IMG/VR virus record: IMGVR_UViG_3300032163_000010
Coordinates: 1-64,000 of that record
Reading direction: 5' to 3' (one strand)
Length of the DNA: 64,000 nucleotides
Source of the DNA: a virus
The notes beneath the pieces were generated by a model, which saw nothing but the letters and a program-made list of their open reading frames with translations, did not search any database and was not told the DNA's origin. Below, piece by piece: positions 11,089 through 34,576 of the stretch. Position 1 is the stretch's first letter, and each line of letters starts with the position of its first letter. The translations under genes and the position numbers were made by a program.

Positions 11089-11448
11089 ATGAGAACAGCA
11101 ACAGCAGCCAGAAACTCTGTATCGCAAGTAGATACAGAAAAAGAGTACATCGTTTCTCTAGATAGAGAGACGACAGCAACTATCTCTGCGGTTGAGAAGT
11201 CTCAACTCCAGAGAAGTCAGATATCTATAGATGGAAAGGTTCCTTGGATGACATCAATTCTACCAAGAATAAGAGGAGAGAAACTAACAGTGTGGAGATT
11301 ATATGTCTCTATACAGCATACCTACGGAGAAAACAGCATCAGTCGAATGAGAGTATATAAATACCTCAATTCACTAGTTACAAAGAAGATTGCAACGAAA
11401 GAGTTCGATGTATACCAAGGAGCAGATGTCTACACGATAGATAAGTAG
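11089..11448 (+). CDS. Winged-helix DNA-binding protein, paralogue 1
   Basis: TISAVEKSQLQR...KVPW...LTVWRLY...ISRMRVYKYLNSLVTKKIA...DVY; near-duplicate of 11724..12119. Confidence 0.75.
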   Translation: MRTATAARNSVSQVDTEKEYIVSLDRETTATISAVEKSQLQRSQISIDGKVPWMTSILPRIRGEKLTVWRLYVSIQHTYGENSISRMRVYKYLNSLVTKKIATKEFDVYQGADVYTIDK

Positions 11449-11676
11449 AACAAGTAGATTAGGTAAGTCTACATCCACTCGTTTTTTAGAGACAGCAAGA
11501 GCTGATAGATCAAGGATCTAGATGAGGCACAGATAGAGAGAGAGACGATGAGGAGGTGAGAGAGAGATGAAGTACGGAGTAGAACTAGCAGAAGTACAGC
11601 TTCCGGTTAGAGAACCGAAAGTTCGGAAGAAATAGATACACGAAGAGTGTATATCGATAGAGGATCACGATTTTTT

Positions 11677-11703
11677 AGGAATATACGCGAGATGATGCGT
11701 ATG
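11677..11703 (+). promoter_or_regulatory. Conserved hairpin element, copy 1 (loop GAGATGAT)
   Basis: TTTTTT-AGGA-A-TATACGC-GAGATGAT-GCGTATG; 7-bp stem including one G-U. Confidence 0.75.
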
Positions 11704-11723
11704 AATAGATAGAGAGCCGATAG

Positions 11724-12119
11724 ATGAAGAATCTAGATGAGGCACAGATAGAGAGAGTAGTGAGAGAAATGACAGCAAGGAAAGCATCCCAGAATACTGT
11801 AGGTAGTGTACCTACAGACCAGGTAGAGATAGTCTCTCTAGATAGAGAGACTCAAGCAACGATATCTGCAGTTGAGAGAACTCAACTCCAGAGAGGTTCG
11901 GTAGACGGCAAGATTCCGTGGAGCAAGATTCTACCGAAGTTGAAAGGCGAGAGAGTCTCGGTATACAGACTGTATACGTCTGTACAGCGAGTCTACGGAG
12001 CGGGTAGCATCAGTCGGATGAGATGCTATAAATACCTCAACGGACTCGTGACCAAGAACCTCGCAACGGTAGAATTCGACGTTTTCAACGGAGAGAACGT
12101 CTACATCGTTGCTAAGTAA
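11724..12119 (+). CDS. Winged-helix DNA-binding protein, paralogue 2 (start may be ATG 11769)
   Basis: IVSLDRETQATISAVERTQLQR...KIPW...ISRMRCYKYLNGLVTKNLA...NVY. Confidence 0.75.
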   Translation: MKNLDEAQIERVVREMTARKASQNTVGSVPTDQVEIVSLDRETQATISAVERTQLQRGSVDGKIPWSKILPKLKGERVSVYRLYTSVQRVYGAGSISRMRCYKYLNGLVTKNLATVEFDVFNGENVYIVAK

Positions 12120-12149
12120 GCCGAACAGGCTTACATCAACATTTTCTTG

Positions 12150-12176
12150 AGGAATGTGTTCGAGATGATGAACATA
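12150..12176 (+). promoter_or_regulatory. Conserved hairpin element, copy 2 (loop GAGATGAT)
   Basis: TTTTCTTG-AGGA-A-TGTGTTC-GAGATGAT-GAACATA; 7-bp stem including one G-U. Confidence 0.75.
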
Positions 12177-12189
12177 ACTAGAGAGAGAG

Positions 12190-12324
12190 ATGAGTAACAT
12201 GCAGCCAAATGTATGTCTAGCAACAAGAGAAGACTGTAAGGTTTGTCGGAAGACATGGGGAACATCTCCGTGTCAAGTCGCGCCTGCGATAGCGAACGGT
12301 AAAGTCGCTATACTGCTATCGTAG
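12190..12324 (+). CDS. Small Cys-rich protein, below the ORF-track cutoff
   Basis: MSNMQPNVCLATREDCKVCRKTWGTSPCQVAPAIANGKVAILLS*; followed by a CCTCG-GAGA-CGAGG hairpin and T6. Confidence 0.5.
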   Translation: MSNMQPNVCLATREDCKVCRKTWGTSPCQVAPAIANGKVAILLS

Positions 12325-12341
12325 ACAAGCCTTGTAGGTAT

Positions 12342-12373
12342 CCTCGGAGACGAGGCATCGATCCCCGTTTTTT
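12342..12373 (+). terminator. Hairpin plus T-tract terminator
   Basis: CCTCG-GAGA-CGAGG GNRA hairpin followed by CCCGTTTTTT. Confidence 0.5.
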
Positions 12374-12715
12374 ATACTACTCGATCTACGGATTCCGTAT
12401 CGCTAGATCCAAGATGAGCGAGTATTCGTTATCCGTTCTATAGCTCTATCGATACTAGATATCCGCAGGAAGGATTTTCGATACCACCGGAGGAGCGAGA
12501 TGCGGTCCTTAGAACTTCTCGATCTTCTCGTGAGGGATCTCGATTCGGACTTGACATCGTCCAGTCCAAAAACTCTCTATATGTTAAAAGTGGTTATGAT
12601 GATGACTACTACTATGACTCCAACATCATCATCTCAAGTTCAAGTTCTTTCTTTGAACGAACGACTTCCATACACAACATATCACCTGAAACTTAAGGGA
12701 CGTCCTACCGGTCAT

Positions 12716-12731
12716 AAGTTTTATATAGTTA
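12716..12731 (+). promoter_or_regulatory. Archaeal BRE/TATA promoter
   Basis: AAGTTTTATATAGTTA, identical to the 16-mer at 17220-17235. Confidence 0.75.
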
Positions 12732-12859
12732 ATCTACGATATCTTATCGATATACATTATCGAGAGAGTTAGATGAGGGAAACTAGAGAACGATCGTCTC
12801 TAGAGGCCATCGATCTAAGCCTGGTCGACGCGTCGACGACAAGTAAGAGAGTGAAAGAA

Positions 12860-15800
12860 ATGGAAACCAAAGACGAAGAAATGAATCTGTATAGCTACAC
12901 GGCTGATATGTATCAGGATCTGTTTGATATGATCACTGAATACATGGGAGAAGCGGAGCATATCAGCGAAGACAACGTACGGATTAAGGTGAGCGATCTA
13001 CCATCATCGGTAGAAGCGATGAAAGAACTGAGGAAGAAGTTACTCAGAAAGGATTTCATCGCGTACTGGCAGATCGCGATAGAGGAAGGCAACTAAGTTT
13101 TTAAGGACTCTCAGCGAGATGATGCTGAGCGAAAGAACGGAGAGAACGAGAGATGAAGAAAGTCTTGGATATCGGAATACCTCTACGAAGAGGCATCGAC
13201 GATGCTCTCCATTGTGGAGAGCAAATAGAGAAAGATCTGCAACTACGGCCGAGAGACGCTGGTTGCGGATTCGGCTTCCGAGATATGCAGATCCCAATAG
13301 GTGACAAGGACGAGAAGAAGATCGTTGAAGAGGTCAAGACGATCCTCCGAAAGTGTCACTTAATCAAGGGATCTTACGTCTCGGTATATGATGAAGATGA
13401 GGAGGTGAACTAGATGAAGGAAGACACGAAGATCTTGCTGATTGCAGATGCTGTGTTAGAGAAATGGACGAGTGGGAGCTACGAGGGCGTAGTTGAGAAT
13501 TCAGATGTGATATACTGCAACGATGAGGAGCTCCCTGCGGATGATGTATGGAGCATGCTGCAATCAAACGACAAATTGATTGAGAGGCTCTCCGATGGGT
13601 TAATTGAGACAATCAGGGAGCAAGTAAGAAAAGAATTCGCTCCTAGAGTGATAGTAAATATCGGCCCTGGAGATTCAGAGGACGAAGTAGAGCTGTTCTT
13701 TGAAGATCAAGAGGAGAAACATCCGAAAAAGTGAAAGAACGATGTACGAAGTAAGGCAAGATCAGTTGAATGTTCTAGACAAGAACATTCTGAATAGGAA
13801 GAATGCTATAGTAATAGCAAAGATCAGACATGCAGAGCAACCGGGGTCTTATCATGAAGTGCATGAGACTGGTATCGGAGGAGTCTACCAGTTGAAACCG
13901 AATGAAGACCTTCGCGGGGTGCCAGTGTGGGATGATGGATGTACACATTGGAACCTCGCAGAGGAGATAGAGAGAATATTAAGTAAGTGAAAAGAGAGAT
14001 GTCTGAGAGACCGAACAAGGTAGTGTACATGAAGATTCTCGTCGCTGTTAAGGCGAACGAGAAGCAAGTTACCCCAGAGTGGTTCAAGGCCATCCTGGCG
14101 GACATTGAGGAATGCTTCGACGATCAGTTCGAAGCGAAAGCATTACTCAAGGGGTTCGATATAGAACATATAAGGAGGTGAACAAGATGGAGAGAGATGA
14201 ATTGAGCGAATTAGAGAAAGAGTTGGAGAATGCGATGGATAATCTAGACATCGTAATACGAAAGTTCGAAGACCAGAACGAAGCTGTGGAGAGAGTCTAC
14301 AGCTGGTTAGACTGCAGGAGGAAGTGAAAGAAAGATGAAGAAAGTCGTTTGGACGATCGCCTTCGATATCTTCGAAGGAGACGAGGAGAATCCATCGACG
14401 GATGGATGTTTCATCAACCCTGGGCAACTGGGAGATGAACTGAGGAAGAAACTCGAGGAGAGAATCCACGAGTTAGTAGAGAAAGGAGAGTACGAGGCAT
14501 AGAAAATGTCTGTAGAGATAAAGAACGGTATGGAGTATACTAGGTATACAGAGAAAGGCACTGGCACACGCAAGTGGAAAGTCGGTCAACGGATAGAAAC
14601 GGAGTTCGTCACGAAGGCTCAGAAGGCCACTGGGAAATGGATAGACTACGAACCTATCCAACGGAGGAAGCAACAGGCAACGATAGTCGCCATCACGGTT
14701 AGGAAGAATCCTCCGTATAGGGATGTCTGGTTCAAGTTAGACTTCGTCGACGGATTTGGTTTCTGGACAACGAACGTCCACAGGGTTACAAGATATATAT
14801 AGGAGGTGAGAACGAATGAGCTATCGTTTCAAATGGTGGGCTGGAGCGATCTGGGCGGGGATAACAACGGTCGTCTTGGTCTGGTTGTTTGACCAGATAT
14901 TCAGCATCTTCTAGAGGTAAGGTAACATGCCTGAAAGAAATGCCAAGGAAATAGAATTTGACAGGCAGTTGCTTGTCAAGCTAAAGGACCTGCGGGATTT
15001 TTACCGCATCGAGGGTATGAGAGATGCTCTCTACTTCGAGGTAGTGAGCAAGATTGGGTATCTAGAAAGAAGAGAGTGAGAAGAAATGAGACAAGGAAAA
15101 GGATGGAAGTTCAGCGCACCTAGCTGGGAGTTACAGATAGACAAGATATCAGATAAGGAGCTGGGGGAGCTGTACGACACATTCGTAGGCTACTCGGATG
15201 ACATGATCGTTGTCAGAGAAAGCCTAAAGAAAGAAATAGAACGGAGGGAGGTGAAGACGAACGAAAGTCACGACAACTGAGATAGACACCAAAGACAGGG
15301 AAGGAAATGACAATCCAACGGAGTCCGTTGTGAGAGATAGGATGACCGCGGTGACTGAGGAACTAGGTTGGGATATTCTAATCACCGAGGTAGAGGAAAC
15401 AAAGAAGGGGTTCCTATTCAAGGTAGAAATAGAGATCCCTGTGGAGGTGATAAGAAAATGAAAATACAGATAATAGTCCTGACGGAACAACAGAAGAATT
15501 TCCTTGAATCAGATGCTGATCTTGGTGACATCGATCACTGGTTGGAGACCCAAACAAAGACTGCGCCAGTAGTGGAAGTTTTCGTCAGAGAAGAAGGCAC
15601 AGCGAAGGAATCCGTCTGGGGATTGTCCCCAGCAGGGGTCAATGCCATCGAGAGAGAAATTGAAGATGTCATCGTGACAGAGCAAGAGATGAACGCAGAG
15701 GAGGAAGAGAACCATGAGTCAGATCCAAAAACAAGTTGATGACCAGATTAACGGCAAGATCTGGATATGCAAGAACGACCAATGTGCCAAGGGTTGTGAT

Positions 15801-16631
15801 TCACACCCTTGCCTGATAGAACATAATATGATGGAGGTGATAAGAAAATGAGTGAGCAACCAGCACTGAAACTTAGTCTGACGGTAACGTTAGACGTGAA
15901 GTTCTGTGAGCAGGATTTCGAAGGAGCGAATAAGACCTGGGAGGAATGGAAGTCATTGATCACAGGTAACAAGAAGGAGGCTATAGAGACGTTCCTGGGA
16001 AATCTAGACTATGATGGAATGGATAACATCATAGCTGAGGTGATAGATGCCGGAGGTGAGTTAAAGCTCACTGAAGGAACGTATGATGACAAGACAAGGA
16101 GGTGGAAGTTCGAATGAGAGATCTAATCGAGTGGATATGTGAGAAGATAGCTTTCTCACGGCTAAGACCCCTGTTTTTGAAACAAGAACGATGGATGAGG
16201 CATTCGGTGTGCCTTGTCTGCAGGAGATGTAGATGGTAAGGAGGTGAAACAAATGGGTAGAAATCTAACGACAGTAGAGTATAATATGACGATGATTCGC
16301 CACAGGACCGCCGGAACAATAGGATTCATCGTAGGAACAGACTATGGGGGGTTCAGAGTCAAGACGGAGAGTGATGGAGTCGTGAGGCTCCTCAGATTCG
16401 TCGATATAGACAATTGGGAGACATTGACTCCGTGCGATCAGTGCGCAGTGCTTCCAGAGGACAAACGAAATGGCGAATGTATCACGTGCAGGAGGGAGGC
16501 TGTAGGAAATGGAACCTTGCATTAGGAGAAAATACATGTCAAGAGAACTAGGGTATTACTGTGAAGACAAACAAGAATACGTTACTAGGTATGTCTGCGA
16601 CAAGTGCAAGAAGCCACCATCGAGAGACTGA
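12860..16631 (+). other. Cluster of about 15 small, co-oriented hypothetical early genes
   Basis: Tightly packed, often overlapping short ORFs with GGAGGTG RBSs, e.g. 12860-13096, 13153-13413, 13414-13734, 14506-14802, 15848-16117, 16253-16525; includes several Cys-rich microproteins. Confidence 0.7.
13104..13131 (+). promoter_or_regulatory. Conserved hairpin element, copy 3 (loop GAGATGAT)
   Basis: TTTTTA-AGGA-CT-CTCAGC-GAGATGAT-GCTGAG; 6-bp stem. Confidence 0.75.
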
Positions 16632-16683
16632 AGAGGTAAGCTTTAACTTTTTCGCAAACTTGTCCCTTATCTTTGACCCTAGT

Positions 16684-16742
16684 ACCCCGATCTCTCCGCG
16701 TAACCGTATCGAAAATGTTAAATACTCGACCGGCGGTCTTTC
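16684..16742 (+). promoter_or_regulatory. BRE/TATA promoter with downstream palindrome, homologous to 20955-21007
   Basis: ACCCCGATCTCTCC...CGAAAATGTTAAATA-CTC-GACCGGCGGTC-TTTC. Confidence 0.7.
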
Positions 16743-16834
16743 TTATCGATGAACGCTCGAAGCTCGAAGTTCAGGAAACCCGTCAAGAGAACACAGGGTA
16801 GAGCCTTTGGTTCTCTGATAGGGGGTAAAGAACA

Positions 16835-17128
16835 ATGCCCATAAGTTTAGCGGAGTTCCGGAAGTTGGAACAAGCCCCTGCGAAAGCAGGACCAGGAAGC
16901 AAGTTCGTTAGGAAATGTGACTGGTCGAAGGTCACAAGCGAACTGGCCGGCCAGGGATGGACGGTGAAAGAAGCTCTCGCGGTAGCGATGAAGCATGTCG
17001 GGAAAGACCAGAGTATATCGAGGGTCAGGACCAAGAGGTTCCTCGACAAGCTCGTCGAGAAGAAGCTTGCCGTGAAGATGTTCGACGGCATGGGTTACGT
17101 GTACTACGTGAATCCACCGGCGAAGTAA
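16835..17128 (+). CDS. Winged-helix protein, MPIS family, paralogue 3
   Basis: MPISLAEFRKL...KCDW...WTVKEAL...ISRVRTKRFLDKLVEKKLA...YVY. Confidence 0.8.
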   Translation: MPISLAEFRKLEQAPAKAGPGSKFVRKCDWSKVTSELAGQGWTVKEALAVAMKHVGKDQSISRVRTKRFLDKLVEKKLAVKMFDGMGYVYYVNPPAK

Positions 17129-17217
17129 TCGTCCAATTTTTTGTCCCCAGTTTTTATGTCATAGCTCCGGATTCGAGAGAGTCATTTCATATCAAAGTCA
17201 GGAGACCATCCCGGTTC

Positions 17218-17235
17218 GAAAGTTTTATATAGTTA
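17218..17235 (+). promoter_or_regulatory. Archaeal BRE/TATA promoter
   Basis: GAAAGTTTTATATAGTTA, followed by a leader with the hairpin CCTTG..CAGGGT/ATCCTGCAAGG. Confidence 0.75.
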
Positions 17236-17339
17236 CCCAGCGGTCTATTAAACTGATAGATGCTAAACTCAATTAAGCACCGACGAGAGGGTCCTTGTAC
17301 AGGGTTCACAATCCTGCAAGGGCAAGGAGGTGTTAGGTA

Positions 17340-17792
17340 ACGGATAAGAACAAAGTTCCGAAAGGAACACCAGGGTCACTTGCGTATTATAAGAAGAGAC
17401 TGCAAGTGGCAGGATTCGAAATAGGGACGTCATTTAATGACTTCCGAGCCACAGGGCACCGAAGGAAGATGGACGTCTGGAAATGGGAAGAAGATTCTAG
17501 TAACCCGAAATGGAGACAAAGGAAGGTACTAAGTGACGAGGACAAAGCCACTATAAATGACGCAATGGAAGGAGCATATGCATTGAACGTATTCATCAAT
17601 GCCTATCTTGGAGACGCAGCGGAGATCACTTGGATAGAACCGGAGTTAAGACTCAATCCCGATGAAGTCCAGGTGTTGGTGGCGACAGCGCCAACTGTAG
17701 GGAGAGCTTTGGAGAAGATCGATCTGCAACAGAAGATGCTCGATTGGCTCATCGAAGTAGCGAAGAACTCTGCGGTGACAATGAATGAATAG
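17340..17792 (+). CDS. Hypothetical protein, probable ACG start (track start GTG 17406)
   Basis: AGGAGGTG RBS at 17325-17332 lies 7 nt before an in-frame ACG; the frame is closed upstream by TAG at 17334. Confidence 0.55.
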   Translation, partial: TDKNKVPKGTPGSLAYYKKRLQVAGFEIGTSFNDFRATGHRRKMDVWKWEEDSSNPKWRQRKVLSDEDKATINDAMEGAYALNVFINAYLGDAAEITWIEPELRLNPDEVQVLVATAPTVGRALEKIDLQQKMLDWLIEVAKNSAVTMNE

Positions 17793-18018
17793 GGTCTTTG
17801 TTATCAAGATAGACAAAGAACACGCAGATAGATTCGATAAAGCTCTCAACGCTAGGAACAGAGGGCATTTTGGAACATCGGCTAGTATCCATGAGCTGAT
17901 CCAGAATGAGCTCAACAGCTGGGGCGAGAGCAACAGGGAGTTCCAACGAGCGAAGTACTCGGTTAAGGAGATCTTCGACCAGAATGATTTCGTGTTCGAT
18001 GAGGAGGCCACGAAGTGA
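17785..18018 (+). CDS. Ribbon-helix-helix-like protein
   Basis: Alternating beta-strand RVFVIKID followed by two amphipathic helices. Confidence 0.45.
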   Translation: MNRVFVIKIDKEHADRFDKALNARNRGHFGTSASIHELIQNELNSWGESNREFQRAKYSVKEIFDQNDFVFDEEATK

Positions 18019-18617
18019 CAGTAGCTAAGGATGCCAAGGAATTCGTTGATGTCTGGTACGCAGAGCTGAACAGGACGAGTATGCTGTGGAATTCGTTGCC
18101 AGAGGAAGAGACCAAGAGATTCAGGGAGTTCTTGGAGGAGTACAAAGGGTTCATAGGGATAGCTGCTGTTCACACATATTCGAAAGAGCAGATCATCGAG
18201 GCGTTGAACTCAGGGATCGATCCGGAAGTCTTCGGAGCCAAAGAGGCTAATCCCAATTGCCCAAAGTGTGGAGGGGAATCAGATGAACTCAAGGTTGGTG
18301 AGGCGATAGATGACATGGGAACGTATATCTGCAAGGGATGCGGATGTGCATTCACAAAGGACGACGTGGATAACAAGGAACTTCGAGAGCAACTCGAGGT
18401 CGAGGCAACAGGTAAGGAAGGATCTACGATAGTTCAAGGAGCGGTGAAGAAACCATGTTGGCATTATCCTAGGGGATTATGTAAGCACAACGACCCGAAT
18501 AACTGTTCACATGAAGGCATCTTATGCCCGAAGGACACAGTGAAGATTACAACTACAGGTGTAAAGGGAGCCGGGATGACTCATGGGGCGGTCAAATTCT
18601 GGGGGAAGGATCGATGA
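18015..18617 (+). CDS. Zn-finger hypothetical protein
   Basis: CPKC...CKGC, plus a C-terminal Cys/His cluster. Confidence 0.55.
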   Translation: MTVAKDAKEFVDVWYAELNRTSMLWNSLPEEETKRFREFLEEYKGFIGIAAVHTYSKEQIIEALNSGIDPEVFGAKEANPNCPKCGGESDELKVGEAIDDMGTYICKGCGCAFTKDDVDNKELREQLEVEATGKEGSTIVQGAVKKPCWHYPRGLCKHNDPNNCSHEGILCPKDTVKITTTGVKGAGMTHGAVKFWGKDR

Positions 18618-19274
18618 ACCAAGAACAATTGGTCCGCAGGATTAAAGTCCTCATTGGAAGGGACGATTGGTCGGAGATTGTGATAACCAAGGAGGGTCAC
18701 GGATATAAACTCGAGATTAACGATCCGAATCGAGGAGTGCCATTTTCGAAGAAACTTCTTGAGGACAAGGATCCGCTGAAGCCTGATAAGTCCTTACGTG
18801 GAACAATGAAGGGGTGGTAAAAGATGAAGTACACAAAACAGGAATTTGATAAAGCCTCCGAGGGTTACGAAGACCCTGTAGAATTGCTTGCCAGAATTAA
18901 AGTCATTGAGCTGCTCGATAGCCAAGTTAGTGACATTGAAATCAAAGACGTCTCGATGTATGGAGGAGGGTATCTTATCGAACTGGAGTTCATAGTAACA
19001 ATGGAACTTGGTGAGTCAAATGAACTGGTTGACATCATCAAGGAAAGCATCGAGGGATGGAAGGACGCCGACTTCTACAACGAAATGAAGTTGCAATTAG
19101 ATGCTATCGAGGCGAAGCCAACGTTGGAGGACATCGTAGAGTTCTTCAGGAAGAACGGTTGGACGATGGATGACATGATAGAAATCCTGTTGGACATGAA
19201 GGACAAAGAAACCGCTAAGCAAGCGTTCGGGGTCGCTATAGAAAAGACATGGGATACATAGGAGGCAAAGATGG

Positions 19275-19757
19275 ATGGGTAGGAAACGCTCCGTAGCACA
19301 AGAGGTCATCGTTAGGGAACAGAAGAGACGTCGAGCAAAGGCAGTCAAATTATTGAATGGATGGCACTATTGCCCAAGGTGTAGGAGGAATTCTATCGAG
19401 ACGGATTTTGTCATGAATCGCAAGGGAGTCAAGATTACGGAGAAGACGATCAGACCGGGGCCTTCGGGTAACGAGATTGTCAAGGTTCATCTCGCGGGGT
19501 CAATTTGCAGGAGTTGTGGGGAGAAGGAGCTAGTGTGGCTACTCCCCGGAGAGGAACTCATCGACCTGTATCATATATTACATGATAGGATACAAGTAGA
19601 TGTCAGGATTAGAGACATGATGGAATGGTTGTTCGCGGTACCACAGGATTCAGCGGAGGACAGGAGAAAGGAAGCAAAGAGGAAGGAAGAGGCCGAGCTG
19701 GAGAAATGGAGGAAGGAAGCTCCAGTGATCACGATTCCTGATAAGAAGGAAGAATAA
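19275..19757 (+). CDS. elf1: Elf1-like transcription elongation factor (Zn ribbon) with C-terminal extension
   Basis: Basic MGRKRS N-terminus, YCPRC...S, CRSCG, then P.EELIDLYH...D; colinear with the Elf1 pattern MGxRK...FxCPxC...CxxC...ExIDxYxxxxD. Confidence 0.65.
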   Translation: MGRKRSVAQEVIVREQKRRRAKAVKLLNGWHYCPRCRRNSIETDFVMNRKGVKITEKTIRPGPSGNEIVKVHLAGSICRSCGEKELVWLLPGEELIDLYHILHDRIQVDVRIRDMMEWLFAVPQDSAEDRRKEAKRKEEAELEKWRKEAPVITIPDKKEE

Positions 19758-19771
19758 CCGAGGTTGATAGA

Positions 19772-20041
19772 ATGATCACGTGCACAAATTGCAAGTCAGA
19801 AGTCTTCAAAGCAGAGAAGCTGAAAAGCGAGCATGGAACTATCACGGTGAGATTGACATGTGCGAAGTGCGGTCATCGAGTGCAAGTGTGGATTGAAAAC
19901 GCCGCGCTTAAAGAATTGGTGAAAGAGATAAAGGCATACAATGAGATACAACATGGACTAAGTGAAACAATACAGATGGTAATAGACTATGAATCGAAAT
20001 CTTGGTGGCGGAAGATCCTCGGAGGTCGATGGGTAGAATGA
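19772..20041 (+). CDS. Zn-ribbon protein
   Basis: CTNC...CAKCGH and a C-terminal WWRK. Confidence 0.6.
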   Translation: MITCTNCKSEVFKAEKLKSEHGTITVRLTCAKCGHRVQVWIENAALKELVKEIKAYNEIQHGLSETIQMVIDYESKSWWRKILGGRWVE

Positions 20042-20310
20042 GTGAAAAACCATTACGAAATCGATGGGAGATACAGGCTGACATCATTGATACATGTCCT
20101 GCAATAGTTACAAGAATCATGACTAATGCAAGTGTGGGTTGGAGGCCACTTGTAGGGATACTTGGTCATCTTATTGAGAAAGGATACCTGATTAGGCAAA
20201 TAGGAAAATCTGTTAGTATAACAAGTCACAGCATGGTAACGATATACTATTCAACCCAACGAGGGAGAGAGTACGTGGCACTTGTGAGAAGAGTAGCTGA
20301 GGCGTCATAA
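20038..20310 (+). CDS. Archaeal winged-helix regulator (HTH_45/ArnR-like)
   Basis: RNRWEIQADII...TRIMTNASV...LIEKGYL...YYSTQRG. Confidence 0.75.
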   Translation: MSEKPLRNRWEIQADIIDTCPAIVTRIMTNASVGWRPLVGILGHLIEKGYLIRQIGKSVSITSHSMVTIYYSTQRGREYVALVRRVAEAS

Positions 20311-20599
20311 GGGATGAGCCACTTACGGGATGTAGCTGAGCTGCGCAGTCAGCCAAAGGAATTTAAGTCGCATGTCGAAGCGGACATATACTGCAAGTTG
20401 GCAAAGCAAGATGTCACGCTAGTCTGCAATGCAAACGGCGTGGTGGTTTGTCGATCATGGAAGAAATGTAGGCAACATTCATTGGATACCTGCCCGGAGA
20501 AGATAGCCTATCAAGCGATGTTGGCAGAAATGAAGAAGAAAGGCGAGGAACGGCAAGCTGCCCATGTGAGTCTATTAGGAATACTGAGGAGGTGAGAAG

Positions 20600-20749
20600 A
20601 TGAGTGGAGATTTTACGGCTAAGATTGACGCTCTAGACTTCGTTATAGACGTACTGAAGGAACACGAGAAGGAACTAGATGCGGCTTTATCAAAAATGGA
20701 GGAATTGATCACTCGGCTTGAGGAACTAGAGAGAAAATTAGGGAAGTGA
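20600..20749 (+). CDS. Small coiled-coil protein, below the track cutoff
   Basis: GGAGGTG RBS; MSGDFTAKIDALDFVIDVLKEHEKELDAALSKMEELITRLEELERKLGK*. Confidence 0.7.
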   Translation: MSGDFTAKIDALDFVIDVLKEHEKELDAALSKMEELITRLEELERKLGK

Positions 20750-20954
20750 ATACTACTGAATGGCTAGGACGTACGTTGTTGACTCCCGCACGTTGAGATA
20801 CTGGTTGGCTCGTTTCAATCAGATCCCAAAGTGCAAACTCTGCGGTGAGGGGTTCAAAATAGGCGACAAAGTTAGAACGACGCAAAGACCGAAGAATACT
20901 TCTGTGAGCCACCGACATGTTCGGTGTATTGAGGAAGGCTCAGTACCTAGGGAA

Positions 20955-21007
20955 ACCCCTATCTCTCCCCTGAGCGAAAGTTTTAAATAGCAGACCGGGC
21001 GTCTTTC
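20955..21007 (+). promoter_or_regulatory. BRE/TATA promoter with downstream palindrome
   Basis: ACCCCTATCTCTCC...CGAAAGTTTTAAATAG-C-AGACCGGGCGTCT-TTC. Confidence 0.75.
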
Positions 21008-21011
21008 AATC

Positions 21012-21132
21012 GAACGCAAGCATGAAGGAATGAGCGACAATGGGAGACACGGTTCAACGGAGTAAAGGTCCTAGCGATCGGCTGTTGGATCGTATGCTTA
21101 CATTCAAGGGCAACGCGGGCGCTTGCAAGTTC
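21012..21132 (+). ncRNA. Structured 5' leader RNA
   Basis: Nested helices GAAC-GCAAGC/GCTTGC-AA-GTTC and GAATG-AGC/GCT-TA-CATTC, and a 12-bp ACGGTTCAACGG/CTGTTGGATCGT helix with 3 G-U pairs. Confidence 0.6.
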
Positions 21133-21151
21133 AGACAGGAGGTAACATGAT

Positions 21152-21490
21152 ATGCCAATAAGTATGTCAGAGTTCCAGAAGCTACAGAAGGTAATCCCGG
21201 GCACCCGCAAGGGCGGGAAGAAGATCGACTGGGACGGGGTCTTCAAGGCAATGACGGGCAAAGGAGGCTTCACGACAAAGGAAGTCTATGCCCTAGCGAC
21301 GACTCACGCGTTGGGCAACGGGAAGCCGTTGAAGGACGCTGAGGGAAAGGATATCCCGGTGATATCCAAGTTCAGAACCCAGAGATGGCTCCAACAGCAA
21401 GTAGAGAAGAAGCTGATGGAAGTCAAGATAGGCCCCAGTGGGGATTACGTCTACGCGGTAGCGGTCATACCGAAGATCCCGACAGCGTAG
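21152..21490 (+). CDS. Winged-helix protein, MPIS family, paralogue 4
   Basis: MPISMSEFQKL...KIDW...FTTKEVY...ISKFRTQRWLQQQVEKKLM...YVY. Confidence 0.8.
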   Translation: MPISMSEFQKLQKVIPGTRKGGKKIDWDGVFKAMTGKGGFTTKEVYALATTHALGNGKPLKDAEGKDIPVISKFRTQRWLQQQVEKKLMEVKIGPSGDYVYAVAVIPKIPTA

Positions 21491-21498
21491 GAACAAAG

Positions 21499-21786
21499 CC
21501 GGTCGATGAGGGTCAGGGAGCAGATCCTTGCCCTCACGATAGACGGTCCGAATCCTTAGTAGTGGGGGATAAAAAACTGGTAGTGCACCCAGCCTAGACC
21601 ACAACCACGCAAAAAACTGTGGCAGGAATAGGACCGTTGAGACCGCCTGAGGGGGTCAGATGCCTCGGCGTTTGGCTCTCCAGGAGACGGTCATGCGGGA
21701 GAGTAAATCGAGACAGCGTGAAATGGCGGGCCAGGGGCCCTTCGCCTGTCAACGGACTGCTCGGAACTCAGATCCCGCGATGCCGG
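21499..21786 (+). ncRNA. Candidate ~290-nt multi-domain structured ncRNA, family unknown
   Basis: Four helical domains rich in G-U pairs, with pairing 5' and 3' ends; no credible ORF or RBS inside. Confidence 0.65.
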
Positions 21787-21798
21787 AGGTCATGACAC

Positions 21799-22311
21799 AT
21801 GACGTGGATTAATGGGAGTTTTCTGCTAGGAGAAGCAGATAAGGTTCTCGAGTTTTTTAACCAGAAAGGAACGGATTACTGGAATGAGGCGAACGCTGAA
21901 GCACTCATTCTAGCGGAGACCATGAGGGAGATGGTCGAGAAGGGTCTCCCTCCGGAGACAGCGGTCTATGTTTACGGAAAGAGCCTCGAGGTGAAACCAA
22001 GCAAACCGCAGGAGGAGGTTCCGAAGGAGGAACATGAGCTCGTACTGAAGGTCCTCTTAGATGAATCACCTGGGGGGTTGAAGAAGTCCTTGAGTAAAGG
22101 AATAGGAACTTGGTGGCCTGATAAGGCAAGCTACGAGGGAAAGAATCGCTTAGGAGTCAGGGTGGAGTATTCAGCGATACCACCGGGGTGTAGGGTCGAG
22201 GAACGGGAGGAGATTGTTCCTGCGAAACCTGCTGAGCCGGAGAGAACAGTAATGAAGAAAGTTCTCATCTGCGAAGGCAAGAACGGAACAACGGAGGAGA
22301 TCGTCGAATGA
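21799..22311 (+). CDS. Hypothetical protein
   Basis: 170-aa ORF with GGAGGT RBS. Confidence 0.65.
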   Translation: MTWINGSFLLGEADKVLEFFNQKGTDYWNEANAEALILAETMREMVEKGLPPETAVYVYGKSLEVKPSKPQEEVPKEEHELVLKVLLDESPGGLKKSLSKGIGTWWPDKASYEGKNRLGVRVEYSAIPPGCRVEEREEIVPAKPAEPERTVMKKVLICEGKNGTTEEIVE

Positions 22312-26851: not shown

Positions 26852-26855
26852 GAGA

Positions 26856-28892: not shown

Positions 28893-29074
28893 CCTACCAG
28901 ATTGGAAAGATCTGTTACCAGAGGGACTCCGGCGTTTATCGCATAAAGAACAACAAGAGAGATTCCTCAAGATGATGGGAGAATTACCGAAAGGCTCCCC
29001 GTTGAGGATAGCGATCAAGACGTTCCTAAATGCACAATATGGAACGATGGTAGTAACGAAGGAGAAGGAAAAAA

Positions 29075-29539: not shown

Positions 29540-29807
29540 GTGTCCTGATTGCGGAGAGGTAGTTCATCTACCGGCAGGAGCAAAGACCGCTCAGTGTGAG
29601 ATGTGCCATAGGGAAGTTAAAGTCTCTTGGCAAAAGGAGAAGAACTTCGAAGGGAGACCTGTGGGGTTCGTACATTATAGAGAGAGCCGAACGACAACTA
29701 CAGCGGATGTGTATCTTGATAAAGAGACATTGATGGCCTCAAAGAGGAAGATCTCTAATGTCGACAAAGGTAGAAGTAAGATGGTTTCTCGAGGAACATC
29801 CAAATGA
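29526..29807 (+). CDS. Zn-ribbon protein, probable ATA start (track start 29601 truncates the motif)
   Basis: In-frame HAFECPDCGEVVHLPAGAKTAQCEMCHRE; AAGGAGGG RBS 6 nt before ATA; TAG at 29502 closes the frame. Confidence 0.65.
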   Translation: MHAFECPDCGEVVHLPAGAKTAQCEMCHREVKVSWQKEKNFEGRPVGFVHYRESRTTTTADVYLDKETLMASKRKISNVDKGRSKMVSRGTSK

Positions 29808-30087
29808 AGCGTTTTGTGCTAAGGAACTTTTGGGGGTGATACTGTCTGGCGAACCTAGGATTAGAAAGGCCCTCAATGAATTATCTGATGAAGGGATTAT
29901 CGAGTGTCATCAAGGGGAGATTCTCTATTATGGATTTGTGGGAGTTCCATGCGAGTATCGATCGAAGTGTGGAGAGTTTGTTGAAGGAGATGATTGTTTG
30001 AAAAGATCATTCATGTGTCGCACAAGGCAGGACATGGAGGACAAGGAACTCGAGGAGGAGGTAAAGGATGTCACTGAAGCAGAGTAG
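29758..30087 (+). CDS. Winged-helix protein with Cys-rich tail
   Basis: FLEEHPNEAFCAKEL...IRKALNELSDEGII...YY. Confidence 0.65.
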   Translation: MSTKVEVRWFLEEHPNEAFCAKELLGVILSGEPRIRKALNELSDEGIIECHQGEILYYGFVGVPCEYRSKCGEFVEGDDCLKRSFMCRTRQDMEDKELEEEVKDVTEAE

Positions 30088-31178
30088 GCTATTTGGGTTC
30101 GGAGGGATCAAGGAAAAACTCTATTGCGGGTTTTGTAGAGCGAAGGCTGAAGTTGAAGAGAGCAGGCAGGAGGGGGAGATAGAGTTGTTGAGATTGTCTT
30201 GTGGGCATGTAACATTGAGAGATCTCTCAGGAAGGGAGGAAATCGCGGATAGGTTGATGGAGGAAAGGAAACGTGAGCGAAAAAAGATGTGACCTCTCGG
30301 ATGCAGTCTGCGGATGCATCAGGGAGATCAACAGAGAAGAATGTCTACTCTGTATTATATCCCAACAGGCTTCGATGTTGCATGTTGCGTCGAAACTGAT
30401 GGTTGCAAATGCTATCCTGCAAGGAGGAGAGGCAGGATTTGAAGTTATAGTGACATCTGACAGGATTTTACATAGAACTGGGGAATGGATTAAGAAATAT
30501 AGACAAGATTTGGAAAAAGAAGCTAGAGAAACAGGCAAGGAGGAAAGGGGGCTGGAAATGAGAGCGTTGGGTCCGATGACCAGGGAGGAGCTAATGGCGG
30601 CACTCATAGCGTCAGGTGAGTCGAAGGTGAAACCAATTTGAGTGAGAAGTATATGGATATATGGACTGAGGGGGCGAAAGAGAAAGTAGGGAACGCTCCT
30701 TTTGAGATTCTCTCGAAGTTAGATGCTCTCGTGAAGGAGCATGGGAAGGATCTGACCCATCCGTCAGTCTACGCGAAGTGTCCTGTGGATGGGGATAAAT
30801 GGACAGTGTATTTTGAAGTCCATGAGGAAGAGTGGAGCGGAGTGTCAGAAGAGATTGTGGAGTTCATCAAAAAGAACAACGTGGAGGTTGAGACGTTCGC
30901 ATGACAAAGTTTGAAATGGAGTTGCCTGATGAGCTAATTAGGTTACTCAAAGAGATAAGGACTGATTTGTCAGCTGACAGGTATTACTCGTTGGATTATG
31001 ATCTCAGGGAGAATTACAAACCTGCCACTGATGAGGACGTTATCAAGTATTTACTCAAGCGAGACAAGTATCTGAGATCTTGGGAGTGCGATATGAGTGA
31101 TAATCTCATCAAAATAGTTGATGTTGAAGGATACAAGAAGAAACACGCAAAAGATAAATTGACAGGAGGAATCAACTA

Positions 31179-32123
31179 ATGTTGGTTGAGAAATACCGCC
31201 CCAAGAGTTTTGCTGAGGTCTATGGACATAAGAGGATCATAGACTCACTGAAAGGGTTTGTCACATTGAAAGAAATGCCGAATCTTTTGTTCGTAGGGAA
31301 GAACGGGGTAGGGAAGACCGCCGTGGCGAATGCTTTGGCTCACGAACTAGGGATCGTGTTCCCTCAAGATTACTTAGAGATCAACTCAAGTGAAGAGAGA
31401 GGGATCGATACAATCAGGGAGAAGGTCATCGGATTTGCCAAAACAAAGGGTATCAGCCCCACGAAATGGAAGATCCTTCTTTTGGATGAAGCGGATGGAA
31501 TAACGAAACAGGCACAACAATCTCTGAGAAAAGTGATGGAACAACATGAAAAATCAGTTAGGTTTATTCTGACGTCGAATGATCTGTCGAGAGTTTCAGA
31601 GGCGCTGCAGGATAGGTGTTCGATATATATGTTCCAGGGGGTTCATTTCACTCAGATCGAATCGTTGATTAAGGATGTGGCATACAAGGAGAAGCAAGTC
31701 TTCCTGAGTGACTTCGTAGTCAAAGCGATCAGGGAGATTTCAAGGGGATCTGCGAGGAAGGCTCTGAACACCCTTGAGGCAGTGTTGACGTTAGAGAATC
31801 CTACAGTTGAAGATGTCTACCAGTTGGTCGGTTCGGCGAATGAAGAGTCAGTGTTCCATTTGGTGTTTAGTGCGTTGAAGGGTCATGTGACAGCTCTTCA
31901 AGTTCTCGATAATCTTTTGGAATCAGGAACAGATGCCACGGATGTCATCAATTTGATATACTACGGCACAGTGAGGAACACAATCCCGAGATTGACAAGT
32001 TCTGAGCGGTTAGTTCTATTGAACGCGGTGGGTTCTGTTCCTGGATCGACAGATGAACAGAGACTCGGGGGAATTATTGCAAGAGTGATACAGATCATCG
32101 GACCAGTGGAGGCTTCGGAATGA
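31179..32123 (+). CDS. rfcS: Replication factor C small subunit (clamp loader)
   Basis: VEKYRP, GKNGVGKT, EINSSEERGID, LLDEAD, AQQSLRK, ALQDRC and GSARKALN. Confidence 0.92.
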   Translation: MLVEKYRPKSFAEVYGHKRIIDSLKGFVTLKEMPNLLFVGKNGVGKTAVANALAHELGIVFPQDYLEINSSEERGIDTIREKVIGFAKTKGISPTKWKILLLDEADGITKQAQQSLRKVMEQHEKSVRFILTSNDLSRVSEALQDRCSIYMFQGVHFTQIESLIKDVAYKEKQVFLSDFVVKAIREISRGSARKALNTLEAVLTLENPTVEDVYQLVGSANEESVFHLVFSALKGHVTALQVLDNLLESGTDATDVINLIYYGTVRNTIPRLTSSERLVLLNAVGSVPGSTDEQRLGGIIARVIQIIGPVEASE

Positions 32124-32145
32124 AAATAAGAGTTATCAATATCAC

Positions 32146-33057
32146 TTGGACTCAGAGGTTAAAGTAAAGACAGCTATTGGAACTGTGATAATAAAATCGC
32201 AGGAGATGTTGCAACTGGGAAAAAATGAAGTTGGTTTCTTAGAAGGCAAAAGAAAACATCATCAACAAGGAGTGTTCATGCAAGGGGGAATAATCAATGC
32301 GGGCTGGGGAGGTACAGCTAAGATGGGAATTAATGGATGTACGTTATGTGAGTTGACGAGAAAGAGTATCGTTAAGGGAAATGGTAATCCTAAAGCTCGA
32401 TTAATGATCATCGGAGAGGCTCCAGGAGAGGAAGAAGACCTACAAGGAAAGCCATTCGTTGGCCGATCAGGCAAGTTGTTGAACGCAACTCTGGCCAAGA
32501 TGGGGATCAAGAGGGAAGATATCTACGTGACGAATATCATGAAATGTCATCCACCAGGGAATAGAAGACCTCTTCAGACGGAGATTGATAACTGCACTAT
32601 GTATCTACTAGAGGAAATCCGAAGTGTTGATCCAGAAGTCATCGCAACATTGGGATTGTCTGCAGCGAACTGGTTCTTGCCAGGAGAGACCATGGGGGAG
32701 ATGAACGGTAGGGTATTTAACATTCAAATCAATGATAAATCAAGGAAGATAGTTCCAGTGTACCATCCGAGTGCGGTGTTGAGGAATCCGAACATCAAAG
32801 ATTCGTTCGAACGAGCAATGAAGGTAGCCATTGAGGAGAGCCGAGAAGTAATGAAGATTAACGAAGGAGATTTTGTAGCTGCGGCCGCTGATGGGTTTAT
32901 CAGGAAAGCGAGGAAGAACGATAGACCTGTAGGGACAGTGGTTAACAAGGATACATTCACTAGTGGGACAATTGTGAAGATGAAAACCAAAGATGGAACG
33001 GAGTATTGGGTGACAATAACAGGATATGTTCCTGAGTTTGTGGAGGTGAAACCCTAA
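32146..33057 (+). CDS. udg: Family-4 uracil-DNA glycosylase with an N-terminal dCTP-deaminase/dUTPase-like fragment and a C-terminal extension
   Basis: CTLC, IIGEAPG, PFVGRSG, TNIMKCHPPGNR and YHPS motifs; N-terminal GFLEGKR...GVF..GGIINAGWGG. Confidence 0.88.
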   Translation: MDSEVKVKTAIGTVIIKSQEMLQLGKNEVGFLEGKRKHHQQGVFMQGGIINAGWGGTAKMGINGCTLCELTRKSIVKGNGNPKARLMIIGEAPGEEEDLQGKPFVGRSGKLLNATLAKMGIKREDIYVTNIMKCHPPGNRRPLQTEIDNCTMYLLEEIRSVDPEVIATLGLSAANWFLPGETMGEMNGRVFNIQINDKSRKIVPVYHPSAVLRNPNIKDSFERAMKVAIEESREVMKINEGDFVAAAADGFIRKARKNDRPVGTVVNKDTFTSGTIVKMKTKDGTEYWVTITGYVPEFVEVKP

Positions 33058-33452
33058 TGGTAGGAATCACTACAAGGAGAAACCCTGATGGGTTAGTTCT
33101 GTATAAAGGGGCCAAGAACGCAAAAACAGGTTTGCCTGAAGGTGGAATTCACGTGGAGGTCTTCTTAGACAGAGATGAATGTGAAAAAGTTCTAGAGTCC
33201 ATTAGGGAGGCAAAGAGGCACTATTGGAGGAACGGGGAGAAGAAACCAATGAAACCCGATAAGGGCAGTATATTGAAAGTGGAACTCCCTGATTCATTGA
33301 GGGAAGCTGACAAGAAATGAACCCAAGATATATCCTAGCTGCGGTTTTGTTGGCAAGCTGTACTGTAGTTTATGCTGTTGTGGCTTGGACTATGGTTTCT
33401 GCAATTCTTCATGCCATAGCTGAGGATCTATACTTGTTGGGGGTCTAGAGAC

Positions 33453-33752
33453 ATGAGACAGGAACTAGCATGTTCAGACTGTGGGAGAAGACTAGTCTTT
33501 GATATGAACTTCAGCCAAGATGGTAACCATGAGATCACGTGTCCGGCATGTGGTCACGTTCATTACAGGGTAGTAAGGAATGGACAGATTACAGGTGATA
33601 GGTGGCAGGCGGCAATGCAAACTTTCATGGCAACGAATATCACGGTATATAGTGGTGGAACTACATGTGATACATGGGCTTCGAACATGAATGTTGGCAC
33701 AGCTACCCAATTCATGCGTTTCTCATGGTTGCAGACAGGAACAGGAGGGTAG
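33453..33752 (+). CDS. Zn-ribbon hypothetical protein
   Basis: CSDC...CPACGHVHYR. Confidence 0.6.
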   Translation: MRQELACSDCGRRLVFDMNFSQDGNHEITCPACGHVHYRVVRNGQITGDRWQAAMQTFMATNITVYSGGTTCDTWASNMNVGTATQFMRFSWLQTGTGG

Positions 33753-34208
33753 GAGGTGAGAAGATGAAGATAGAAATATACGCAAGAGGGGAACCGAGAA
33801 CAGGGAAGTCTTTCGTCTTAGTTAGATTAGCGAAGGTTTTGAATTCATATGGGTTCGAGACCTCAGCAGTGGTCAATATCGAAACTGATGTCGAGAAACT
33901 GGAGGCTATGAGGCTGGAAGATCGGTCGGCGTTCATAACTGGCGACAGAATGGTGCAATTCGGAGATTGGACGTTCGAATTAGACAAGGACGACGTTCTA
34001 ACGAAGGTCCTATTTAAAGGAATGACAGTTCATTCGACCGAAGTAGTGATAGGACTCAGTATAACAGCCCAGCCTGAGTTGACGTTGAGGGGCGCTATCA
34101 CGGAATGAAACTTGAAACTTCCGTAGACTTTGGCAAAATTTTTCAAAAGCCAAAGACTCCAAATAACCCCTTCTGTCGTTTACTTCCTGCGTCTGCCTGA
34201 AACAATGT

Positions 34209-34226
34209 CGAAAGTTTTATATATAA
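34209..34226 (+). promoter_or_regulatory. Archaeal BRE/TATA promoter of the replication operon
   Basis: CGAAAGTTTTATATATAA, followed by a GCAT.CCC/GGGATGC leader hairpin. Confidence 0.75.
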
Positions 34227-34288
34227 AGAGCGGGGAGACTTAAATGCATACCCACTTAGAAGAGAGGGATGCGAATAGGTGAAAGAAA

Positions 34289-34576
34289 GTGCCAATAAGT
34301 CTAGAAGACTTTAAGAAACTCGCGCCGAAAGGCGAGAAGACGGCGACAGTGCCAACAGACAAGCTCCTTGCAGAGCTGAAGAAAGCAGCCATGACCACGA
34401 AAGAAGTTGCGAAGCTTCTTGGTGTTCAGAGTGGTACGGCGTATTCTAGGTTGCAGAAGCTTGAGAAGGCAGGCGCCGTTGAGAGAGGTATGAACGGTGC
34501 GACGTCCTATTGGGCGTTCAAAGCCGGATACATCCCAAAACCCGAGGCCAAAGTAGAAGAGAAGAAAGCAGCGTGA
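34289..34576 (+). CDS. Winged-helix protein, MPIS family, paralogue 5
   Basis: MPISLEDFKKL...MTTKEVAKLLGVQSGTAYSRLQKLEKAGAVER...YW. Confidence 0.8.
   Translation: MPISLEDFKKLAPKGEKTATVPTDKLLAELKKAAMTTKEVAKLLGVQSGTAYSRLQKLEKAGAVERGMNGATSYWAFKAGYIPKPEAKVEEKKAA

Follow-up and report, generated by a model that had tools for sequence, protein, structure and literature searches.

A virus-restricted family of small, basic winged-helix proteins, putative transcription regulators, encoded largely behind strong promoters in an uncultured archaeal tailed virus

In the 64,000-nucleotide stretch analyzed here (hereafter the window; bases 1-64000 of the 72,004-bp virus record IMGVR_UViG_3300032163_000010, which is rated complete), five open reading frames (ORFs), called here by their first positions 11089, 11724, 16835, 21152 and 34289, are, as judged from sequence and profile comparisons, members of one virus-restricted protein family made up of four old clades: A (16835), B (21152), C (11089 and 11724) and D (34289). 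We propose with moderate confidence that these proteins are DNA-binding transcription regulators which would be made first from strong promoters and act back on viral promoters, timing the early and middle transcription units. Suggestive of such a role are their fold, their charge, the placement of their genes, the clade-specific residues of their predicted recognition helices and the precedents of Stf76 and of self-controlling archaeal-virus repressors; DNA binding, target sites, sign of regulation and timing are what we infer, and only infer, from these. The members are:

11089..11448, plus strand: type-C member 1, 119 amino acids, isoelectric point (pI) 9.52
11724..12119, plus strand: type-C member 2, 131 amino acids, pI 9.59, winged-helix domain at residues ~61-131
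16835..17128, plus strand: type-A member, 97 amino acids, pI 9.95, apparently monocistronic
21152..21490, plus strand: type-B member, 112 amino acids, pI 9.86
34289..34576, plus strand: type-D member, 95 amino acids, pI 9.66, first cistron of a replication/DNA-modification block

All five ORFs open where a previous reading made from the sequence alone had placed them, and the encoded proteins are uniformly basic (pI 9.5-9.95, net charge +5 to +10). Their kinship was assessed by Smith-Waterman local alignment against 300 shuffles, none of which reached the scores of the pairs 11089/11724 (z 64.8), 16835/21152 (z 21.2), 11089/16835 (z 13.5) and 11724/16835 (z 10.2). The 11089/21152 pair is weak by the same test (z 1.9), and four other helix-turn-helix (HTH)-like ORFs of the window, run as controls against 11089, 11724, 16835 and 21152, scored between z -1.0 and 2.2. 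The sequence-only reading had counted five paralogs: four of them are firmly related (pairwise z 10-65), whereas 34289 is a distant member whose pairwise scores to the other four are marginal (z 4.0, 3.8, 3.0 and -1.0, the last to 11089, to which its link is indirect only) and which joins the family through profile comparison and a bridging protein. A profile of 17 family members of clades A, B and C aligned with 34289 in hhalign at 73% (E 3e-5, 87 columns), and a protein of the related virus G006 matches both 34289 (BLASTP E 8e-14) and the A/B/C profile (hhalign 96.8%, E 2.3e-10). When all six frames of the complete 72-kb genome were searched with a profile of 40 family members that leaves out 34289, exactly these five ORFs came back, 34289 at E 2.1e-4. 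The comparison of profiles and structures that the sequence-only reading had called for came out in favor of relatedness, the profile evidence (E 3e-5) being joined by the winged-helix models described below.

Eight positions are invariant in a 17-row alignment of the family (K27, G39, I61, S62, R65, L70, V74, Y90) and five are at least 90% conserved in a 40-row alignment (W30, S62, R65, L70, Y90); the shared motifs first picked out by eye, K..W, IS[RK].R....L...V.K and a terminal VY, are accordingly invariant or nearly so. The N-terminal motif described as common to all five proteins stands in its MPIS form for clades A, B and D; the corresponding type-C motif, TISAVE..QLQ, matches only in the two window copies and is not shared by their type-C orthologs. 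The pattern MPI[ST]..[ED]F..L forms the very N terminus of the clade A, B and D proteins and of many distant members. Given that the codons of the MPIS start differ among orthologs, the constraint on this peptide is at the level of the protein, and a synonymous, RNA-level constraint is ruled out. In the predicted third helix a common frame of I, S, R and L surrounds clade-specific residues, RVR[TV]KR in clade A, KFRTQR in B and RMRVYK in C, which would fit a shared scaffold with different DNA targets.

The family is a small one. Seventeen proteins belonging to it were found at E values up to 0.01 in a collection of 5.8 billion sequences, none of them informatively named, and 30 sequences at E up to 0.001 among 1.84 billion representatives. 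In a tree of 47 sequences four clades are supported, A with 5 rows, B with 4, C with 13 and D with 7, the last (support 99/99) nested inside a 34-row MPI-type group. Each window copy pairs in this tree with metagenomic orthologs, the two C copies lying within one six-row clade, which indicates that the duplications are old. When copy number was surveyed in ten records picked by terminase similarity, two carried family members (four matches in G001, one in G008), and the pair with the highest completeness, 100% and 95%, had none; family queries led to two more records, G006 with two matches and G007 with one. Scans of viral contigs with the four-sequence and clade-B alignments confirmed no relative, and the clade-A alignment gave one, G006. 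Among cellular sequences, a genome-collection scan with clade A confirmed none of 14 pattern matches, two methanogen genomes with a distant terminase relative hold no family member, and 401 sampled genomes of one methanogen class gave only two marginal matches (E ~7e-4), inside 307- and 334-residue frames. Divergence is fast in clade C: the G001 copies share only 23-28% identity with 11724, as against 76% between the terminases and 83% between the clade-D proteins of the two viruses.

That these are winged-helix proteins, as the sequence-only reading had proposed, is borne out by AlphaFold models of two of them. The 16835 model (mean predicted local distance difference test score, pLDDT, 76.4) has helices at residues 30-37, 44-53 and 63-75 and strands at 41-42, 79-83 and 88-92, with a poorly predicted linker (pLDDT <50, residues 18-24) between the N-terminal peptide and the domain; the 11724 model has helices at 66-73, 80-91 and 98-110 and strands at 77-79, 114-119 and 124-129, and from residue 61 on its 10-residue blocks have mean pLDDT values of 81-96, with 57 residues at 90 or above. 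Both show the order helix-strand-helix-helix-strand-strand, with a beta-hairpin wing after the third helix. Their listed fold matches in the PDB are mostly winged-helix regulators, F93 of Sulfolobus turreted icosahedral virus (STIV) and proteins of the ArsR/SmtB, MarR, Fur and PadR types, and the top ones are all winged-helix proteins. The best are STIV F93 (PDB 2co5; E 0.012, TM 0.49-0.51 over 66 columns, for the type-A model; rank 44 for the type-C model) and a Listeria transcription factor (E 0.017). F93 is likewise a winged-helix DNA-binding protein of an archaeal virus, of ~90 residues, but at 17% identity and with a weak score the match is one of fold and not of family membership.

In sequence databases, 34289 passes the Pfam cut-offs (in brackets) of HTH_20 with 30.5 bits (27), TrmB with 29.7 (25.6) and HTH_24 with 24.8 (21.9), which together with the many fold matches of both models to such proteins recalls the ArsR/SmtB, TrmB and MarR regulators. 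In contrast, 11089, 11724, 16835 and 21152 match none of these models, nor any other Pfam HTH family at E up to 1, nor any PHROG or NCBIfam model; weak TrmB matches are seen in four of 40 family members, and neither structural model is predicted to have the sensor or dimerization helices typical of ArsR or MarR. A PDB sequence profile search with the family found nothing at E <0.09, a viral fold library nothing at E <=0.001, its weaker matches being generic winged-helix ones, and a protein atlas a best score of 0.89, under the level worth following. The protein family is in this sense new, four of its five window members being without a model, while the kind of gene is familiar.

Three of the five genes lie behind what are putatively the strongest promoters of the genome. 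A 13-mer combining the transcription factor B recognition element (BRE) and TATA box, AAANTNTTWWATA, has four copies in the window, where 0.12 would be expected (none of 100 shuffles reached four), at 16712, 17219, 20977 and 34211, and the whole 72-kb genome holds these four forward copies, no reverse copy and no other perfect BRE/TATA 13-mer. This motif, a putative archaeal promoter, is strongly over-represented, plus-strand-specific, intergenic and conserved in relatives; in promoters of this type an 8-bp TATA box comes after a purine-rich BRE.

16711..16724, plus strand: BRE/TATA of the A cassette, GAAAATGTTAAATA, also kept by the orthologous L005 and L006 loci
17218..17231, plus strand: fourth consensus BRE/TATA, heading the 17406-20990 unit, with an orthologous second promoter in L005
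20976..20989, plus strand: BRE/TATA of the B cassette, overlapping the stop codon of ORF 20760-20990
34210..34223, plus strand: BRE/TATA of the D cassette, a consensus 13-mer match

The family genes 16835, 21152 and 34289 begin 110, 162 and 65 nucleotides (nt) after their TATA boxes. As had been observed from the sequence, these three MPIS genes are each the first cistron behind a consensus BRE/TATA, and finding family members in three of the four promoter-first positions among 98 plus-strand ORFs has a hypergeometric P of 2.6e-4. The fourth promoter, at 17219, which the earlier reading does not mention, precedes an unrelated ORF, 17406, and no family gene. The arrangement of promoter, leader (25-160 nt) and family gene recurs in L005, L006, L007, G001, G006, G007 and G008.

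The proposal that family genes head successive transcription units survives in part. The B gene, 21152, is the first cistron ahead of a block encoding RNase H, a clamp-loader-like protein and a uracil glycosylase, and the D gene, 34289, precedes a block encoding a recombinase-like ATPase, family-B polymerase, a nuclease and deazaguanine-synthesis proteins. T tracts can be read as archaeal terminators, and the stop codon of 16835 is followed by a T6 at 17137, a T5 at 17151 and then the full promoter at 17219, which makes 16835 look monocistronic, standing alone between two promoters and not at the head of a unit. The same order of A gene and second promoter is seen in L005, there without the T tracts.

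The A and B cassettes share more than their promoter cores. Besides BRE/TATA, the 16.7- and 21.0-kb regions hold, in the same order, ACCCCnATCTCTCC, GACCGGssGTCTTTC, GAACGC and AAGTTCAG, as discrete blocks separated by differing sequence. Their homology beyond the TATA core, which the sequence-only reading had asserted, is upheld by a collinear chain of exact matches (48 against 20.0 +/- 6.3 in shuffles; 41 against 17.9 +/- 6.4 with BRE/TATA masked; 0/500 shuffles in both cases), local alignment giving z 10.7, or 2.9 with the core masked; no other pair of promoters is similar with its core masked (z <1). Since both the proteins (z 21.2) and the promoter-leader regions are homologous, an old duplication of the whole promoter-leader-gene module is supported by these comparisons. 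The paired elements are:

16684..16697, plus strand: upstream pyrimidine-rich element of the A promoter, ACCCCGATCTCTCC, 13/14 identical to its partner at 20955
20955..20968, plus strand: upstream element of the B promoter, ACCCCTATCTCTCC, partner of the 16684 element
16728..16742, plus strand: TATA-to-start spacer box A, GACCGGCGGTCTTTC, containing a 5-1-5 palindrome
20993..21007, plus strand: spacer box B, GACCGGGCGTCTTTC, 13/15 identical to box A

In the regulator reading that we favor, each strong promoter would yield its family protein first and the proteins would then act back on viral promoters, in the simplest case as repressors, of the feedback or cross type, that occupy the stretch from TATA box to start site; when and how strongly the early and middle units are expressed would depend on this control. 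The nearest precedent is Stf76 of pSSVx, a 76-residue winged-helix protein that is reported to bind two sites in its own promoter (PMC4027180). A small winged-helix protein of an archaeal mobile element acting on its own promoter is the layout that we propose for cassettes A, B and D, where binding is predicted. The two systems differ in that no sequence relation was detected in Pfam, PHROG and PDB sequence searches of the family, that host group and virus type are not the same, and that the window family has a conserved N-terminal peptide, long leaders and several paralogs per genome. F55 from the Sulfolobus spindle-shaped virus SSV1 and other ribbon-helix-helix regulators of archaeal viruses bind repeats overlapping the BRE or start site, both at early promoters and at their own gene (PMC5569661), a position of action like that proposed here; the fold of F55 is ribbon-helix-helix and not winged helix.

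The candidate operator sites are the spacer boxes at 16728 and 20993 and the start-site inverted repeats, which are neither above chance as palindromes nor kept in orthologs, and here the evidence weighs against our reading. The sequence-only reading had taken the post-TATA palindromes for operators, a view that we do not retain: such shapes are at background level (among all 22-nt windows, arms of at least 5 bp occur in 5.5% and arms of at least 4 bp in 22.5%, figures on which the palindrome was rejected as a statistically unusual feature), and neither the orthologous L005 and L006 promoters nor any other part of the genome has them. These orthologous A promoters keep BRE/TATA, the upstream pyrimidine-rich stretch and the start-site sequence TTATCGA[TC]GA[AG]CGC, and have unrelated sequence in place of the spacer box. 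With up to three mismatches allowed, the 15-mer box matches the window only at 16728 and 20993 (two matches against 3.96 expected), so that any regulon would be tiny. The clade-D TATA-to-start spacer differs between the window virus and G001, even though the two proteins are 83% identical and share the same HTH segment, TKEVAKLLGVQSGTAYSRL. On the protein side, conservation within the family is highest in the core of the predicted recognition helix, a pattern that sequence-nonspecific binding would fit too; in clade B an insertion of 12 to 15 residues lengthens the loop that joins helices 2 and 3, an unusual trait in a classical helix-turn-helix; and the fold matches are weak, none reaching E <=0.001 in the PDB for either model.

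The spacer box is more alike between the paralogous A and B promoters of this genome (13/15) than between orthologous A promoters of different viruses, the pattern expected of a site co-evolving with a factor of the same genome, for which two promoters offer a thin basis. A partial copy, CAGCGGTCT, lies in the same alignment columns of the 17219 promoter. The 7-mer GWCCGGC was tried as a genome-wide site and rejected, with 8 matches where 8.13 are expected; in L005 it occurs once, in the spacer of the second promoter, a weak lead only. We also note an island of ~150 nt, 150/153 identical between L005 (2420-2572) and L006 (760-912), that ends at the type-A promoter TATA box, the rest of the aligned 1.3 kb being ~60-70% identical; it would stem from a recent exchange whose breakpoint lay at the promoter, or else be a non-coding element under extreme constraint.

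We give a minor share of credence to the view that the proteins are abundant architectural ones, coating or bending viral DNA with little specificity in replication, packaging or protection, and that their promoters are built for high output. Small, very basic proteins present as several paralogs per genome would suit such a role, as would consensus promoters with strong ribosome-binding sites, an A gene set apart as a dedicated single-gene unit with terminator tracts, a third-helix core conserved across clades and the presence of the histone H1x globular domain among the fold matches (rank 6, E 0.033). Set against these are the clade-specific helix residues, which suggest distinct targets, the assignment of 34289 to regulator families by Pfam, and the fast evolution of clade C (23-28% identity where the terminase keeps 76%), unusual for a structural DNA coat. 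We know of no tailed virus that needs chromatin proteins for packaging, which counts against this explanation as well.

The leaders between promoters and family genes bear on an alternative of another kind. Archaeal RNA synthesis starts ~25 nt after the TATA box, and the starts of nine family-gene leaders were inferred by this rule before folding. Those of the window's three cassettes have the following features:

16746..16834, plus strand: inferred A leader of ~90 nt, with a 5'-terminal hairpin GAAC (16751-16754)/GUUC (16769-16772), a second hairpin and a Shine-Dalgarno sequence
21012..21151, plus strand: inferred B leader of ~140 nt, with GAACGCAAGC at its start pairing with GCUUGCAAGUUC just before the Shine-Dalgarno sequence
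34245..34273, plus strand: 5'-terminal hairpin (UGCAU...AUGCG) of the D leader

Six of the nine leaders fold better than shuffles: those at 16.7 kb (minimum free energy, MFE, -31.6 against -22.7 +/- 3.3, z -2.68, 3/200 shuffles) and 34.2 kb (z -3.45, 0/200 shuffles) and those of L005 (z -3.87), G001 (-2.46), G006 (-5.89) and G007 (-5.22). The other three do not, at 21.0 kb (z -0.46, 54/200 shuffles folding as well), in L006 (-1.15) and in L007 (-0.07). A structured hairpin leader had been described at all three window promoters; this holds at 16.7 and 34.2 kb and not at 21.0 kb, where the long-range stem of the B leader is nonetheless present in both the MFE and centroid structures. A stem at the 5' end recurs across leaders: GAAC/GUUC in the A leader and in L006 becomes GAGC/GCUC in L005, changed on both sides, the B leader has GAAC/GUUC as a long-range stem around a ~100-nt insert, and in clade D the window virus and G001 keep the outer stem UGCAU/AUGCR, with an inner stem that differs in sequence and is still paired. 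This covariation, in few sequences, is suggestive. The leader of the fourth promoter scores z -1.50; within it (17253-17402) lies a strong local hairpin whose core, GGGTTCA[CT]AATC[CT]TGC, is conserved in L005 (3040-3090). In the type-A-like leader of L007 (3833-3905), the stems GGAGTAC/GTACTCC and CGGGAACAG/CTGTTCCCG interleave in the manner of an H-type pseudoknot; the nested fold of that leader is not better than shuffles.

On this alternative, which we think unlikely, the winged helix and the N-terminal peptide would act mainly through contacts with RNA or protein. In its RNA version the protein would bind the 5' hairpin of its own leader, in translational feedback or at a nut-like antitermination signal; in its protein version the N-terminal peptide would dock on the host TATA-binding protein (TBP), transcription factor B (TFB), RNA polymerase or sliding clamp. 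The peptide's position at the exact N terminus in clades A, B, D and many distant members, kept while codons vary, speaks for contacts of this sort, as does the poorly predicted linker (pLDDT <50 over residues 18-24) that parts it from the domain; on the RNA side, six of nine leaders reach z <= -2.4, and the 5' stem is kept through two-sided changes (GAAC/GUUC against GAGC/GCUC in L005, and the inner stem of G001). The three leaders not structured beyond shuffles count the other way; moreover, the 17219 promoter has a hairpin leader without a family gene, hinting that leaders may be general to this virus's strong promoters, and the covariation rests on two to four sequences per stem. If the proteins are regulators acting at DNA, the hairpin at the RNA 5' end would be a separate conserved RNA feature, probably serving transcript stability or translation control.

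An extended version, in which promoter, start-site hairpin and regulator form a self-contained module that spreads copies of itself along a virus lineage, strikes us as improbable. It would make the family a new class of archaeal viral transcription factor whose N-terminal peptide docks on the basal machinery or the elongating polymerase, with nut-like leader hairpins as recognition sites on the nascent RNA; the first protein of each long early or middle unit would then turn that unit on or bring about its read-through.

The region upstream of the type-C genes has elements of its own:

10910..10923, plus strand: TATA-like box GTTTTAACTAGGGT, candidate promoter of the type-C genes, in the divergent region beside the packaging operon
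11001..11070, plus strand: 13-bp tandem repeat AAGAGCATAGATA, present in 5.4 copies right ahead of the 11089 start codon (89% matches and a score of 98 in Tandem Repeats Finder)

The 14-mer GTTTTAACTAGGGT, which is not a consensus 13-mer match, is also found upstream of the first type-C-like gene in G001; the 13-bp repeat array is missing from the same place there. Words resembling ATAGATARAG number 26 in the window against 12.1 expected, 15 of the 26 falling within 10972-11847, a cluster that takes in the 13-bp repeat and could be a binding-site array or an origin. On the minus strand, TTTAAATA at 10725-10732, 36 nt before the first minus-strand ORF (10689), is a probable promoter of the packaging/structural operon, pointing away from the type-C genes. 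In G001 (L076 374-2257), four tandem type-C-like genes occupy the position of the window's two copies beside the packaging operon; copy number thus varies.

A fast-diverging group of small HTH-type proteins, encoded in a divergent region between the packaging operon and the early block in two copies here and four in G001, with kin at strong early promoters, also brings to mind Aca-like (anti-CRISPR-associated) regulators of anti-defense operons or the immunity repressors of a temperate virus, a possibility that we rate as very remote. Aca proteins are small HTH proteins repressing a strong early viral promoter, and their genes lie inside or at the end of anti-CRISPR operons, after the anti-CRISPR genes. 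The comparison drawn with them in the sequence-only reading fails on this gene layout: a family gene of the window comes first or alone, A being monocistronic and B and D preceding replication and repair genes. No integrase was seen among the proteins scanned, which represent part of the window's ORFs, and no family member was confirmed in the cellular genomes searched (none of the 14 pattern matches; two marginal matches in the 401 genomes). For its part, the ATAGATARAG-like cluster recalls the tandem ATAGATAG sites that are bound by SSV1 F55 (PMC5569661).

The source of the window is, on the strength of its gene content and of the relatives of its polymerase and terminase, an uncultured archaeal tailed virus. 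The large terminase (8640-10172) and portal (7157-8635) genes, assigned through PHROGs, lie on the minus strand at the left end, and ~98 purine-rich ORFs are tightly packed on the plus strand from 11 to 55 kb. This plus-strand block encodes RNase H, a clamp-loader-like AAA+ protein, uracil-DNA glycosylase, a recombinase-like ATPase (AAA_24), a PD-(D/E)XK nuclease, QueC, a radical-SAM protein and GTP cyclohydrolase I, together with a probably intein-bearing family-B polymerase whose closest relatives are those of haloarchaeal tailed viruses, at 24% identity. The remote terminase relatives L084 (29%) and L085 (26%) come from genome bins bearing the titles Methanoregulaceae and Methanocellaceae, which hints, if weakly, at the hosts that the virus group in its wider sense may infect. 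The genes for QueC, the radical-SAM protein and GTP cyclohydrolase I lie close together within 46009-49971, a set that we presume to reflect 7-deazaguanine modification of the viral DNA. The polymerase ORF (37868-41383) carries a LAGLIDADG-type insert, and a second ORF of 687 residues (51046-53109) has Hint and LAGLIDADG matches; these are probably two inteins.

Two further features adjoin family genes:

34582..34773, plus strand: second small HTH-like ORF directly after the D gene, 63 amino acids, pI 5.3
21488..21800, plus strand: GC-rich non-coding stretch of 313 nt between the B gene and the next ORF (MFE -133.6 against -107.1 +/- 5.6, z -4.76, 0/100 shuffles)

The 34582 ORF is not a family member by profile, the 40-member family profile missing it and its Pfam HTH matches being sub-threshold only; pairwise it scores z 3.8 to 34289 and matches none of the other four, and the 34289-34582 gene pair is kept in G001 and G006. 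Other small HTH-like ORFs outside the family lie at 20002-20310 (Pfam HTH_45, E 4.4e-7) and 29758-30087 (sub-threshold matches only). The stretch at 21488-21800, in which no convincing ORF and no Rfam match were found, may be a structured non-coding RNA or the long leader of the next unit. Searched against Rfam, the entire window had no match at gathering scores, and the part from 16500 to 22000 had none even when E values up to 1 were admitted.

To our knowledge, almost nothing is known about how tailed viruses of uncultured archaea from sediments control their genes. What is known of such control in archaeal viruses at large comes from a few regulators, most of which are hyperthermophile-virus proteins of the ribbon-helix-helix or zinc-finger kind (PMC5569661). 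Against this background, the locus described here has a regulatory layout that is compact and open to testing: within 72 kb there are four strong promoters of identical sequence, of which three head members of one winged-helix family, largely without a database model, together with a duplicated promoter-leader-gene cassette and a conserved N-terminal peptide. Should the proteins show no such affinity for promoter-proximal boxes, they would be just another small viral DNA-binding family; if they do bind these boxes, they would provide a first transcription program for this group of viruses.

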